Assembly: GCF_044324875.1 (NCBI RefSeq)
Contig: NZ_CP172185.1
Source of the DNA: Escherichia coli
GTDB lineage: Bacteria; Pseudomonadota; Gammaproteobacteria; Enterobacterales; Enterobacteriaceae
Reading direction: 5' to 3' (one strand)
DNA length: 64,000 nucleotides
The notes under the pieces were generated by a model, which saw nothing but the letters and a program-made list of their open reading frames with translations, had not been told where the DNA came from and searched no databases. Shown here piece by piece: positions 28,963 to 34,994 of this stretch. How positions within the stretch are numbered: position 1 is the first letter of the stretch; every line of letters starts with the position of its first letter. The position numbers and the translations under genes were made by a program.

Positions 28963-31215
28963 TTACAAATAGAGATAGTTCGGCGGTTCTCCAGTTTTCC
29001 CTAAAAGAAGAGCGCTACGCCCAGGAATATTGATATTTAGAGTTCCGCCTCTAAGCGTAAATGCTTTACCAGGGGGGATAATTTTTCGGGTATTATTAAT
29101 AATAATGTTAACGCTATTACTCCCCATGTTTTTATATATTCCAGGTTGCAATTTGTTAGGCCAGGTACCTTCAACTTCTTCGTTTCCTTTATTTATTATA
29201 ACTAGTCCATCATGAGGAGAGTGATTAATGTTCACAGAATCCCCACGACTAAAGGCCAGAACGTTTTTAGTTGCAAATACACCCTCAAATGCGCTCCATA
29301 TTCCTGCTTTATCTATATATAATGCGTGGAATTCATTGTAGAGCTGCTGATAGGTAGAGCAACCTTTATTAAGCCACGCCTCACCGCCGACACGAGTGGA
29401 CCCATCATCATTTTTAATCTCAGTCGTTGATTTTAATACCTGACCATCCCAGTAAACTAAAGGCCTGCTGAACGGGAGAGCGGCCATATATGCCATTGCT
29501 AATTGTTCATCTTGCGGATGGTTAAATAAAAAGTCATTGAAAAGATTACCATTGTTAGGGAAATCGTGGTTGATGTTAATCAATATCCGTCTTTCTGATG
29601 GGATGCTTGAGATTGTGGAGCCCGGTTTTGATGCAAGGGCTTGGAGATCTCCACCGAATGAAAAGGCTTTTATCGTCTTCATGAGCAATGAAAAATCAAT
29701 GGCGCTTAAATCATCTCTTTCATAAAGCAGCGATGACATTTGTTGTTCATCTAACGGACAAGTTACCAGGTATTCCATGTAATTCATAACAGCTTTTTTT
29801 TGATATTTTGGATTAAATAAATTTGTATTGTGCAACCGCTCATTATAATTTTTAAGCGGTGGGGTTATCGACCTCTCTATTTGTTCATGTTTTGAGTGTT
29901 TTGCTGCATCATAACGTAAACCTCGTACGCCATATTTTCGCATTTCACGAACGTATTGATTTTGCAACATAATAACCTGGTCACTTTTGGGTGTTGTTTT
30001 AGGCATTCCATTTAAACGCTTTTCTTTTAATGCATGGAGGTTTTCCCATTCATCCTTAGAAATATTATCTTTACTTGCTTCGAAGTCTTTTGCAGTGAGA
30101 TGTATATCTTCTGGATGGATTTGGTCACGTTCTTTTGTTACTGGATCTATAATAAAGGGAATCAAGACCTGACCTTGCCAATAGCCAGGGATACCACTTT
30201 CTATATCTTTACTGATCTTCGCTCGTATATCGGCAGAGGGATAATCCAGATCATTTTTACCACTACCCCCGATTCCCATAAAGTTAAATGTATAATCAGG
30301 GATGATATCGATACCAAATTTTTTGGCATCTTTAACCAATGCGATAAAATCCTGCAAATCTCCCATTGGATTATGAATAGTACAAAGATCTTCGGGTTGA
30401 TAAGCGTGAAACCAGTAACCTTTTTCTTCTTCGGGAGTTTCTGGTCCGTCGGCGCGGAAAGTGGTTACGGGAGGGATTTGTATATACCCATAATGACAAC
30501 GTGCAAACTCAGATATATTTTTCCTGATTTGTTGATAGGTGGCATTAAAAGCATGAAGAATCGCTTCGCCAGGTTTTTTGGGGGTGATGATTTCACATTG
30601 TGATTTCTGAACAGCAGTAAGAGATTTACGCTCAAGTGTTTGCCGTAGATGTTCTGGATTGATTAATATTTTAAATGTTTCTTGCTGGCCGGTAGGTGAC
30701 GTTACGTTAATATTATATACATCAGCTGCCAGTTCATAGTCAGGAATGTTAATAGCATATGCAACATACTTATCTTTTGGGGACGGTTTGTCAGATATAA
30801 TGTGAGTAAAATGTTCAGCTGGACCATACTGATGAACACCGCTGTTATCACCTCTTTCAACCATTGTATCTCGTTGATAAACCCATGTTTTTCCTTCTCC
30901 TATCCTGTCTGGTGCTGTAATGCTACGCTGTGCAGCTTTATTCAGCTCTCGGTAAGTTGTATCTGGAGAAAGGGAAATTTTATAATCGTTTTTTAACAGA
31001 TCATTAATAACTTTTTCTGCGTGAAAAGTTGATATAATTTCTCTGTCTTTTAAATCCTGAGGATAAACTCCACAAGAATTAATAATATTTGTTATACAGT
31101 TTAGATATTCTAATGTATTTAATTTGGAATTTAGATCCCCGTCAGTAATGTTCCATGATAACAATGTGGGGTTGCCGATAGGTAAATTTCTTGGTCCTGG
31201 TTTTATAGAAAACAT
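28963..31215 (-). CDS. ygaQ: Uncharacterized 750-aa cytoplasmic protein with divergent GH13 (alpha-amylase family) catalytic core and a 230-aa N-terminal extension
   Basis: No signal peptide. From residue 240 the sequence carries hallmark alpha-amylase blocks: GYIQIPPV, YQPEDL, GDLQDFIALVKDAKKFGIDIIPDYTFNF (region I, terminal His replaced by Phe), GLRYDAAKH (region II, nt 29896-29931), YMEYL (candidate region III Glu) and NINHD (region IV). AT-rich codon usage. Confidence 0.7.
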   Translation of the reverse strand: MFSIKPGPRNLPIGNPTLLSWNITDGDLNSKLNTLEYLNCITNIINSCGVYPQDLKDREIISTFHAEKVINDLLKNDYKISLSPDTTYRELNKAAQRSITAPDRIGEGKTWVYQRDTMVERGDNSGVHQYGPAEHFTHIISDKPSPKDKYVAYAINIPDYELAADVYNINVTSPTGQQETFKILINPEHLRQTLERKSLTAVQKSQCEIITPKKPGEAILHAFNATYQQIRKNISEFARCHYGYIQIPPVTTFRADGPETPEEEKGYWFHAYQPEDLCTIHNPMGDLQDFIALVKDAKKFGIDIIPDYTFNFMGIGGSGKNDLDYPSADIRAKISKDIESGIPGYWQGQVLIPFIIDPVTKERDQIHPEDIHLTAKDFEASKDNISKDEWENLHALKEKRLNGMPKTTPKSDQVIMLQNQYVREMRKYGVRGLRYDAAKHSKHEQIERSITPPLKNYNERLHNTNLFNPKYQKKAVMNYMEYLVTCPLDEQQMSSLLYERDDLSAIDFSLLMKTIKAFSFGGDLQALASKPGSTISSIPSERRILININHDFPNNGNLFNDFLFNHPQDEQLAMAYMAALPFSRPLVYWDGQVLKSTTEIKNDDGSTRVGGEAWLNKGCSTYQQLYNEFHALYIDKAGIWSAFEGVFATKNVLAFSRGDSVNINHSPHDGLVIINKGNEEVEGTWPNKLQPGIYKNMGSNSVNIIINNTRKIIPPGKAFTLRGGTLNINIPGRSALLLGKTGEPPNYLYL

Positions 31216-31774
31216 AATAAAGTTCCTCTAATGGTAGAGTAATATGGTGTATACGGAAACATAAAAATGTTTAATTGTTGTGAAAGTAATTGCAAACAGA
31301 TGTCCTACTTTTATCCAATATTTATATGGAAAAGGATAATGCTTAAATCTGTTTTTTTAATTATCGATGTGGTCTGGAGAGGCAACTGTCAAAAATCGCT
31401 CATACGAAACTAATGATTAGCAGAATAAGATCTATGAAAGAATATATTGCTATATGAAGTTTATTTTTATGGGGTGAAAAGTAACAGATATCATAATGAT
31501 GCGAAAACTCTTCAGTTAATGTAATAAAGTTATATTATTAGATACAAAATCATTACAAACTATCATTGAATCGATGGTAACTATAAATAGTGCTAAGTAT
31601 TAGCATTTGCTTGTTGACTGAGAGTATCGACTTTGTGAATGGAATCGGTGTCGGGTTTTATGTCGCAGGTAATGACGACCCAGGATGAATGAGAACGTAT
31701 AAAAATCTGTTATTTACATCATAAGATCATCATGTTTATTGCGTGGTATATAAGTATTGTTATTGCATACTCAA

Positions 31775-31850
31775 GGCCCTTTAGCTCAGTGGTTAGAGCA
31801 GACGACTCATAATCGTCCGGTCGCTGGTTCAAGTCCAGCAAGGGCCACCA
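31775..31850 (+). tRNA. ileY: tRNA-Ile (anticodon CAU, read as LAU after lysidinylation), ileY-like
   Basis: 76-nt cloverleaf GGCCCTTTAGCTCAGTGGTTAGAGCAGACGACTCATAATCGTCCGGTCGCTGGTTCAAGTCCAGCAAGGGCCACCA; 7-bp acceptor stem, anticodon stem GACGA/TCGTC, loop CUCAUAA, encoded CCA; near-identical to E. coli ileX/ileY as remembered. Confidence 0.88.
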
Positions 31851-32606
31851 AATCATTATTCACGTATCAGGAAGAGTTAAGGTTACAAGGGGGACTCGAT
31901 GGCGGTCAATATTTCACGACTAACGCCATTTTAAAGAAGCAGTGCGGTAGGTAGTTTCGAATGAGGGCTGGTGTTTTGGTACGTGGCACGCCACTGCAAT
32001 GTATTTATCCATCAGTACTCATTCAAAAGTACCTGGAAAAAATGCCCGCTATGCCAAGCGGGCAAATTGCTTACATGTGGAATTAAGTAATTAACGATAA
32101 AGCCAGAGTATTATCATTTATCATGCCTCTTCATTTAATCAGGTTAATTACTCAAATCACTGAACTATTCTCTGTTCGCTCACTGATGATAAGTGAAGTG
32201 TCACAACCACGATTTGTATGTGGACCAATGCTGTAGAGTAAGGATGAAATGTCTCTGCCACGCCTTAAACATCTACTACTGACTAGAACCGCCGTCGAAT
32301 GCAGAAGAGTCTTGTGAGCATTACAGGAGTCTGGCTTTGGTCATTAATCAACGCTATTTAGATATAAATTTCTAACACTCAAAAAACGATTCTCACGAAT
32401 AAATTATAACGGGTGGTTTTTATCATACAGTGAAATAACCTTTTGCTTATTAAATTTAACATTCTTGTGCTAAATTAATTAAAAGTACCATGTATAGCAT
32501 ATGAAGCTGTTAATGCCAGCAATTGTCTCAAATGAGCGATTTTTTATAGTGACAAACAATAATAACATTAAAAATAGCCATGTAGACATTAACTGAGGAA
32601 AAGACA

Positions 32607-34061: not shown

Positions 34062-34339
34062 AGTTCTAAAAGCAGTTTTCAATGATAAATAAACTGCAGG
34101 TTTTACAAAGAGATAATAACGTAGATTGAAACAATATGTATTATTGATTGATTAAACGGGATTATTTTTTACACTACAACCATTTTGCTGCTACTACCAA
34201 AGAAAAAGGGGCTACGCTTTCACGTAACCCCTTGATCTGCGCTGTGATTTACTGAGTTTAAATTGGTGCTGTAATTGGTTGAAATATTTCATCTAATGTC
34301 TGATTCAACTTTCCTTAGCTGCCTGAAAGTTTTTTGATC

Positions 34340-34580
34340 TTACCCAGCAACAACAGCGTTATGGTGCACCATGCCTGACTGATGAACTGCGTGCTCAGGG
34401 TTACCACTTCAACGTAAAACCGTGGCAGCAGGGCCGGACTGAACAAACGGCTCAGGACATTATCGGTAGGTGACACACTGGTTGTCTGCAAACTGAACCT
34501 ACTGGGGCGCAGTATGCGGCATCTTGCCGTGCTGTTGGAGGAGCTGTGCGAACGTGGTATTAACTTTCGTGCTCTGACTC
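34340..34580 (+). pseudogene. Mobile-element debris: IS3-family transposase fragment fused to Pin/Gin-family serine invertase fragment (pinH-like remnant)
   Basis: One frame translates [25 protein letters not shown] (IS3 OrfB-like [21 protein letters not shown]); another gives [49 protein letters not shown] (resolvase/invertase N-terminal catalytic domain) ending prematurely; no intact ORF. Confidence 0.6.
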
Positions 34581-34994
34581 TACCAATATTTGCCCAACAA
34601 TGAGGGGACGAAAACTGTAAAAGTAAAACAATCTGCAATCTCAATGTTATTGTGTGATTTTTATGTGAGCAGAAGATATTCATCAGAAACGATTATGTAA
34701 ATCATTTTATTTTTCCGACGGCTTCAATGTCGAAAGAAAAGAATACGCCGTATTTCCTGAAAAGATTGACTTTTTTATCCAATCATCCTTCAGCACAATG
34801 TCTTAAAAAAATGCCTCATTCTTATGCGGAATATCATCATTTCATCATGATGTCTTTGATGAGCGGTGAACACAATACACTTGCGCTGTCTCTTCAGGAT
34901 GAATCCCCTGGTCTGGTGCCTGTGGGCTGATGTTGCAGCAAAGCTAAGGTCGCTTAAACGCTACTCAGTATTCACTTTTCAGAGGATGAAATTT

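Follow-up and report, generated by a model that had tools for sequence, protein, structure and literature searches.

The AT-rich stretch between glaH (csiD) and the autotransporter gene ypjA/ehaD in a 64-kb window of an Escherichia coli chromosome (the window being the whole 64,000 nucleotides analysed) is very probably the long-resident ygaQ–ileY–ypjCB–pinH' patch, a foreign-composition accessory region that in K-12 is bound by H-NS and Hha and is presently no integrative element. It contains two long genes, ygaQ and ypjCB, which code for proteins of 750 and 484 amino acids (aa) and are transcribed divergently from a tRNA gene, ileY, and it is located in the variable zone that goes from the gab operon to ssrA. 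The locus is already known and present in reference annotation, and does not represent a new kind of system. The window strain has the uninterrupted state of the K-12 pseudogene ygaQ and of the split K-12 genes ypjC and ypjB.

Bases 28700-34900 of the window are 99.8% identical to E. coli strain NY1601, whose RefSeq annotation gives the order csiR-gabP-gabT-gabD-lhgO-glaH, the 750-aa gene, tRNA-Ile, ypjCB, a recombinase fragment, ypjA/ehaD, ssrA and smpB, and names the product of the 750-aa gene "alpha amylase C-terminal domain-containing protein". The gene order of K-12 MG1655 is identical, ygaQ and pinH being pseudogenes there, ypjC and ypjB separate genes, and prophage CP4-57 sitting at ssrA.

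The composition of the patch is foreign. In 500-nt windows the GC content is 0.29-0.42 across 28500-34999 versus 0.53-0.62 on the gab/glaH side (23000-28499), and returns to 0.51-0.56 in ypjA beyond position 37000. The GC content at third codon positions (GC3) is 0.30 in ygaQ and 0.29 in ypjCB versus 0.60-0.68 in gabP, gabT, gabD, lhgO and glaH. AUA makes up 32% of the Ile codons in ygaQ and 23% in ypjCB versus 0-10% in these core neighbours, and AGA plus AGG make up 33% and 54% of the Arg codons versus 0-11%; the rare codons UUA and CUA are likewise several-fold enriched in both genes. The shift to AT-rich DNA that the first-pass annotation had noticed is thus confirmed both by the GC windows and at the codon level against five core neighbours, and the horizontal acquisition that it proposed is supported by GC, GC3 and rare codons, the composition being far from uniform. 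The stretch is ordinary foreign-looking DNA and not a new kind of element.

The same annotation had suggested the stretch as a target of H-NS, which is right and already published for K-12. Genomic SELEX (systematic evolution of ligands by exponential enrichment) in K-12 places H-NS at both the ileY-ygaQ and the ypjC-ileY spacers (PMC3946193), Hha binds near ileY and ypjC (PMC2408971), and ygaQ, which has an intragenic promoter, belongs to a set of six horizontally acquired, H-NS-repressed genes in which spurious intragenic promoters were studied (PMC7229825). By analogy with K-12, the two genes would be silenced in the window strain also.

Products of ygaQ and ypjCB

Judged by sequence, YgaQ is a divergent protein of glycoside hydrolase family 13 (GH13), the alpha-amylase family, with a predicted catalytic part at approximately residues 215-750 in which the catalytic residues are all present. 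The first-pass annotation had treated both long genes as orphans, a description that fails for ygaQ, since Pfam, PDB matches, alignment and an AlphaFold2 (AF2) model all make the family recognisable. Pfam gives weak matches to Alpha-amylase (8e-4, residues 264-471) and to Alpha-amylase_C (2.7e-5, residues 649-738), and phmmer against the PDB finds Bacillus subtilis-type amylases and Ruminococcus bromii Amy16 from about residue 215. An alignment extended down to cyanobacterial amylases of 23-27% identity shows no variation at R434, D436, K439, H440, E481, H550 and D551; these residues correspond to GH13 regions II-IV, which include the catalytic residues Asp as nucleophile, Glu as acid/base and the transition-state Asp. 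Region II aligns with the PDB sequence matches 9qf9 and 3dc0. In region I (DxxxNH), Asn311 is invariant and the His is replaced by Phe (F312) in the YgaQ subfamily, which reads NFMG versus NHMA. The AF2 model, which comprises a (beta/alpha)8 barrel and a domain C, matches 3dc0, 1bag and 1ua7 with E = 1e-16 and a target-normalised template modelling (TM) score of ~0.66.

Residues 1-214 have no homologue beyond the YgaQ subfamily, and the N-terminus lacks a hydrophobic signal sequence, so the protein is probably cytoplasmic. The published biochemistry of "YgaQ" deals with a 110-aa K-12 fragment that was reported as a single-stranded DNA nuclease (PMC4725251). This fragment falls in the N-terminal domain, outside the GH13 part, and since ygaQ is fragmentary in K-12 that work concerns a pseudogene fragment.

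The subfamily is very small, with one E. coli cluster (15,629 sequences), one from Escherichia albertii (60% identity) and a single protein of a gut metagenome (35%), and a pattern scan of 100,044 species-representative genomes returned E. albertii alone. The metagenomic protein, the sole relative from outside Escherichia, has 824 aa and is encoded on a human gut contig (positions 1-17390) in a low-GC patch adjoining a tRNA-Gln gene, next to an invH-like fragment, a leucine-rich repeat (LRR) fragment, marT/fidL-like genes, an EAL protein and a large invasin. A 494-aa neighbour of this homologue was considered as a relative of YpjCB and rejected (hhalign probability 0.1%). Among the PADLOC defence models, YgaQ matches only a weak GlgB-like one and YpjCB matches none. 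A ygaQ fragment that codes for residues 55-315 is present on a 14-kb plasmid record; apart from this fragment and one of ypjCB, the matches to YgaQ or YpjCB in the plasmid search are chromosomes filed as plasmids.

YpjCB is a true ORFan restricted to Escherichia and Shigella, and is fast-evolving; for this gene the earlier description as an orphan is borne out. The protein matches the NCBIfam model NF050179 ("Ecoli_YpjCB") with 932.7 bits (cut-off 650) over profile positions 1-465 of 465, and the Pfam models DUF5507 (9.5e-76) and DUF5508 (2.8e-136), and every named homologue comes from E. coli or Shigella. In a phmmer search of 1.84 billion representatives, only fragments of the YpjCB family were found in addition to two giant low-complexity, repetitive proteins, which were discounted as compositional artefacts after their sequences were read. 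No match was obtained in the PDB sequence search or by tblastn against phages. Foldseek with the AF2 model gives nothing below E = 0.04, and no fold is inferred from this model, which is poor (mean predicted local distance difference test score, pLDDT, 42). A possible pentapeptide repeat at residues 365-412 was dropped, as it has no Pfam backing. Single-copy alleles of ypjCB are only 78-85% identical at the protein level inside one species and have a mosaic look. A 360-bp ypjCB fragment of 88-91% nucleotide identity adjoins IS1 copies on the conjugative IncHI2 plasmid NZ_MN732922 (6971-7363), evidently captured by the activity of insertion sequences (IS). Both ygaQ and ypjCB have good Shine-Dalgarno sequences.

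Selection, gene loss and divergence from E. albertii

Both genes show signs of past function at the sequence level, because ygaQ has a low ratio of nonsynonymous to synonymous substitution rates (dN/dS) and the open reading frame (ORF) of ypjCB has survived. In divergent comparisons (dS 0.013-0.16), the dN/dS of ygaQ is 0.07-0.21, stop-bearing alleles included, while glaH and lhgO have 0.01-0.15, and such values point to a housekeeping-like constraint until recently. The whole ypjCB gene has a dN/dS of 0.5-1.0, with ~0.2-0.7 in the predicted folded segments (residues 31-135 and 281-412), ~0.5-2 in the linker, and 6-8 in some pairs for the first 30 codons, which offer few sites; linker and tails taken together are at ~1 or above. 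Intact ypjCB alleles differ at 144-180 nt, for which a neutral simulation gives a mean of 5.4-6.8 stops and a probability of 0.001-0.006 of having none.

The state of both genes was counted in 29 chromosomes, taken at even steps of the ranking (22 of them fetched), and one codon was counted over 5426 complete genomes. In the 29 chromosomes, ygaQ is intact in five (H1, H2, H4, H5 and H6), carries a stop or frameshift in 14, is absent from six, and is truncated by an IS in three fetched genomes and in H22, which was not fetched and has identical partial coverage. An open ypjCB is found in eight (five full-length, three shortened by an in-frame deletion of 105 nt), a stop or frameshift in eight, and no gene in 13. 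Codon 614 of ygaQ, an invariant Trp (29374-29376 in the window), is TAG in 2397 of the 5426 genomes, an amber frequency of 44%, and TGG in 1542. Strain 315 has an independent TGA at the same codon in an allele otherwise 99.6% identical to that of the window; the other stops are TAG-413 in O157:H7 and the added TAG-346 and TAG-111 in K-12-like alleles. The first-pass annotation had argued that the two intact ORFs are under selection. This stands for the history of the genes and does not stand for the species today, as both ORFs are disrupted or missing in most of the stratified sample.

E. albertii has glaH, an intact ygaQ of 747 codons and ileY in a like arrangement, lacks ypjCB, and has other AT-rich ORFans downstream of the tRNA gene. 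Between the two species the synonymous sites of ygaQ are saturated (proportion of synonymous differences 0.72, dN 0.32, dN/dS ~0.13), while the flanking glaH, lhgO and gabD have dS of only 0.14-0.27. Core-like DNA extends past glaH to ~28775, where homology of 95% to E. albertii ends in blastn, and alignable core-like DNA resumes at 31383. A saturated gene between core-like flanks suggests that the ygaQ unit of ~2.6 kb (28776-31382) has the character of a cassette, with an origin that is separate or much older, and this unit may have been replaced as such. Inside E. coli ygaQ is not hypermutable, its dS (0.13-0.16) resembling that of the adjacent genes. The gab and glaH genes themselves (22000-28700) are unusually diverse in E. 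coli: the dS of glaH reaches 0.22, close to what separates E. coli from E. albertii at this locus, a hint that recombination or exchange across species may have affected this flank.

In the proposed history, both genes would have been functional through most of E. coli history, would be silenced under ordinary conditions and only conditionally useful, and would now be lost repeatedly by nonsense mutations and IS-mediated deletions. The ygaQ cassette would be exchangeable wholesale through recombination in its core-like flanks, and its product is predicted to be a catalytically complete enzyme active on alpha-glucans.

The tRNA gene, the spacers and the flanks

The ileY gene is a second, dispensable copy of tRNA-Ile2, with the anticodon CAU. 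Its tRNA is ileX/ileY-like and not tRNA-Met, as 72 of the 76 positions match K-12 ileY and RefSeq names it tRNA-Ile. The differences to K-12 are in the anticodon stem and the variable loop and preserve pairing, including a compensated 28:42 pair. The pairs C4:G69 and C5:G68, which are presumably TilS determinants, are present. The CAU anticodon of tRNA-Ile2 reads AUA after lysidine modification. Among 18 E. coli genomes there are six ileY alleles, with mostly pair-preserving changes at 28:42, 27:43, 44 and 6:67, the 28:42 pair being G-C, G·U, A-U and, in one case, A·C. Such polymorphism is not usual in tRNA genes and accords with the redundancy of ileY. Despite only two differing positions between the genes, ileX is essential and ileY freely deletable (PMC11480407), which fits a poorly expressed accessory copy. 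The absence of ileY from 042-type and IS-deleted genomes (loci L011 and L020-L023) is in line with the IS-mediated deletions that are reported to have removed it from strains W and B (PMC3032704).

The spacers on both sides of the tRNA gene (31216-31774 and 31851-32606), described earlier as long and ORF-free, do hold only short ORFs: one of 65 codons overlaps the tRNA gene and the others have at most 54 codons. Approximately 100 nt downstream of ileY, the plus strand of 31949-32092 can form three adjacent hairpins with a minimum free energy of -56.3 kcal/mol versus -34.4 ± 3.4 for shuffled sequences (z = -6.4). In eight alleles, E. albertii included, standard pairs occupy 99.5% of the pair cells on the plus strand versus 84.1% for the mirrored structure of the minus strand. 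Fourteen pairs use G·U on the plus strand, and just one internal mismatch would be G·U on the minus strand. Compensatory changes on both sides of a pair are absent, and the alleles compared are the ones from which the structure was predicted. The element is single-copy and is present in 3092 of the 5426 genomes at no less than 95% identity, where it has no annotated feature, and Rfam, at both the gathering and the E <= 1 thresholds, finds only the tRNA and the transfer-messenger RNA (tmRNA) in the window. These data are suggestive of a conserved strand-specific structured element, which may be a structured RNA or a tRNA trailer element. A 41-codon ORF at 31961-32086 was rejected as a small protein, since 9 of its 41 residues differ in E. 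albertii while the base pairing is kept. A small RNA of the minus strand that ends at the hairpin 32043-32064 is disfavoured, as the K-12 and O157 alleles give an A·C mismatch in the minus-strand stem.

The 13-mer AAAAATCGCTCAT occurs exactly twice in the 64 kb, at 31391-31403 (plus strand) and inverted at 32532-32544 (minus strand), with ~0.2 expected by chance. The copies lie upstream of ygaQ and ypjCB with the same orientation relative to each gene, and may form a shared regulatory site. The ygaQ-side copy is inside an 86-bp block with 85% identity to E. albertii, against only 67% for the gene itself, and the region around the other copy is conserved in five E. coli alleles.

Coordinates, strands and supporting evidence for the features of the patch and its flanks
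Feature	Coordinates	Strand	Evidence
glaH (csiD), last core gene on the left	27649..28626	-	RefSeq annotation of NY1601
Terminator-like hairpin directly downstream of ygaQ	28925..28952	-	11-bp stem, 7 GC pairs, T-rich tail
ygaQ, intact, 750 aa	28963..31215	-	ORF list, Pfam, PDB matches, alignment, AF2, dN/dS
Conserved 86-bp block upstream of ygaQ	31383..31468	unassigned	blastn, alignment, repeat search, 13-mer count
ileY, tRNA, anticodon CAT	31775..31850	+	ARAGORN; Rfam tRNA 73.7 bits; RefSeq tRNA-Ile
Unannotated candidate structured element, three hairpins	31949..32092	+	Folding, pair conservation, genome counts
ypjCB upstream region, inverted 13-mer and promoter-like TTGTCT-16-TATAGT	32520..32550	+	
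ypjCB, intact, 484 aa	32607..34061	+	NCBIfam NF050179, Pfam
IS3-family transposase fragment	34340..34430	+	87% identity over 92 bp to IS3 copies in other strains; weak NF033516 match
pinH', Pin-type serine recombinase fragment (159 nt)	34421..34579	+	RefSeq "recombinase family protein, incomplete"; K-12 pinH pseudogene
ypjA/ehaD, AIDA-type autotransporter, right flank	34995..39569	+	RefSeq annotation
ssrA (tmRNA)	39730..40092	-	ARAGORN, Rfam, RefSeq

At the distal edge, the fused IS3 and Pin fragments of the first-pass annotation are confirmed, the one abutting the other, and the profile matches of both the transposase and the invertase fragment are weak (E ~0.1 each). A strong terminator-like hairpin on the minus strand (34206-34233) separates ypjCB from these fragments, and a 15-kb E. 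coli plasmid carries a 96.5% identical copy of the 57 bases that surround it (34180-34236). The right-flank gene ypjA/ehaD is itself accessory. In many E. coli genomes, a paralogue of its leader (34616-34900) with 84-86% identity adjoins ymgJ, upstream of a different autotransporter locus. The ssrA site of the window strain is without a prophage, in contrast to K-12 with CP4-57.

Alternative readings and known systems

An island that was inserted at ileY by its own integrase, of which the patch would be a remnant after the loss of integrase and attachment (att) sites, was the view of the first-pass annotation and is doubtful. It draws on the fact that ileY is a real integration site elsewhere, where integrase-bearing ter-operon elements sit at the "tRNA-Met between ypjC and ygaQ" (PMC8193136), on strain 30EVA2, in which a CP4-type module (DUF4942, CbtA/YeeU, antirestriction, Ag43) abuts the 3' end of the tRNA gene exactly and homology ends at window position 31853, on the IS3 and Pin fragments, and on the downstream side of the tRNA gene, which is wholly different in E. 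albertii. However, the 3' end of ileY (as a 17-mer or a 25-mer, up to 3 mismatches allowed) is single in the 64-kb window, so that the proposed att remnant was looked for and not found, and the repeat search gave no bounding direct repeat. As had been noted before, there is no integrase-sized ORF and no intact IS between glaH and ssrA according to the ORF list and annotation, the 159-nt Pin fragment being the only recombinase trace. Accessory genes lie on both sides of the tRNA gene, and ygaQ is 5' of it, outside the insertion side of tRNA-targeting integrases; the order glaH-ygaQ-ileY is common to E. albertii, and the ~220 bp directly downstream of ileY diverge at core-like rates and hence are no island cargo. 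At most the half from ypjCB to pinH' could be an integrative remnant, and nothing in the window proves it. Variation among strains is mostly by IS1-, IS2- and IS3-mediated deletions and point mutations and not by precise excision, with 30EVA2 as the one strain that has a foreign module exactly at the 3' end of the tRNA gene. In this strain (locus L010, 11150-19153) the CP4-57-like module replaces ypjCB, and either an insertion at ileY or an ssrA island combined with a deletion is possible. It is improbable that the two ORFs are non-functional leftovers which evolve neutrally and by chance are open here. Their disruption or deletion in most genomes, the overall dN/dS of ypjCB and its lack of homologues or a confident fold would agree with such leftovers. 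Against them stand the dN/dS of ygaQ of ~0.1, with catalytic residues that are invariant down to 23%-identical cyanobacterial relatives, the E. albertii ygaQ that is intact despite saturating divergence, the open state of all the intact ypjCB alleles where the neutral simulation expects several stops, the constraint in the folded segments of YpjCB and the Shine-Dalgarno sequences of both genes.

Very improbable is a role of YgaQ and YpjCB as secreted host-interaction proteins, such as substrates of a T3SS (type III secretion system) of the ETT2 or locus of enterocyte effacement (LEE) type. Both N-termini are rich in Ser, Thr, Asn and Pro and almost without acidic residues in the first 20-25 aa, as are those of the YgaQ homologues from E. 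albertii and the metagenome, a Sec signal is missing from both proteins, the metagenomic relative adjoins the invH-like and LRR fragments, the marT/fidL-like genes and the invasin, and the N-terminal and linker segments of YpjCB are hypervariable. Such a composition is weak evidence in AT-rich genes, though, and the invH match is a 95-aa fragment far under its cut-off. Strains with T3SS islands carry broken copies, O157:H7 with a stop or frameshift in ygaQ and enteroaggregative E. coli 042 with a stop in ygaQ and with ypjCB and ileY deleted, and neither the window ORFs nor the NY1601 annotation have a chaperone or T3SS gene adjoining the two genes. It is also distinctly improbable, on the sequence features at hand, that ygaQ, ypjCB and ileY form one co-regulated, normally silenced module, a reading which relies on the shared 13-nt upstream motif, on AUA-rich genes that flank an AUA-decoding tRNA gene and on the joint inactivation in sampled lineages. 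If it were true, ygaQ would code for a constrained glycan-active enzyme and ypjCB for its rapidly diversifying partner, the repeated loss would reflect a cost in some niches, and the putative structured RNA would belong to the module.

Some points weigh against the preferred reading of a long-resident, conditionally useful accessory patch. The AF2 models of both proteins are weak, that of YgaQ having a mean pLDDT of 56 with 70-90 in the core, and the Phe in place of the usual region-I His means that the activity or specificity of YgaQ may be unusual. The census, based on 22 fetched genomes of a 29-row list and one codon count, is not placed on a tree, so that independent losses are estimated as a minimum. 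The combination of strong purifying selection and a high-frequency amber allele is not fully explained by conditional usefulness.

For the field little changes, as the K-12 annotation, the NCBI model of YpjCB, the association with H-NS and Hha and the integration at ileY were all known previously. What K-12 has as ygaQ, ypjC and ypjB are pieces of two full-length genes, which a minority of strains still have intact, and these intact ancestral forms, together with the cassette-like divergence from E. albertii, are of specialist interest. With its housekeeping-like constraint, its frequent amber allele and several independent knockouts, ygaQ is a clear-cut example of a gene lost recently and repeatedly, and this loss could be linked to ecology. 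The apparently empty spacer downstream of ileY holds what may be a conserved structured element, previously unannotated.

Among known loci, the K-12 MG1655 region ygaQ' (b4462)–ileY (b2652)–ypjC (b2650)/ypjB (b2649)–pinH' (b2648)–ypjA (b2647) is alike in locus, order, orientation and flanks. K-12-type ygaQ alleles have 95.7% nucleotide identity to that of the window and TAG at codons 111, 346 and 614, while the window has one ORF of 750 codons; K-12-type ypjC/ypjB have a stop at codon 161 and the 105-nt in-frame deletion, while the window has one ORF of 484 codons. The window ileY differs from that of K-12 at 4 of 76 positions, and CP4-57 is missing at ssrA.

YgaQ shares the catalytic barrel, the C-terminal beta domain and the catalytic triad with the B. 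subtilis-type GH13 amylases (PDB 1BAG, 3DC0 and 1UA7) and R. bromii Amy16 (9QF9), with an identity of just 16-19% over the structural alignment. Unlike them, it has an extra N-terminal domain of ~215 aa, no signal peptide and the region-I Phe, and only E. coli, E. albertii and one gut-metagenome contig have members of its subfamily. CP4-57 at ssrA and the ter-operon elements at ileY (PMC8193136) are also low-GC accessory DNA by a targeted tRNA gene, with recombinase or IS remnants, while the ygaQ–ypjCB patch has neither an integrase nor an att direct repeat and has cargo on both sides of the tRNA gene. With the H-NS-silenced xenogeneic DNA of enterobacteria, the patch shares AT-richness, rare codons and the H-NS and Hha binding reported for its K-12 version, and nothing sets it apart from such DNA in kind.

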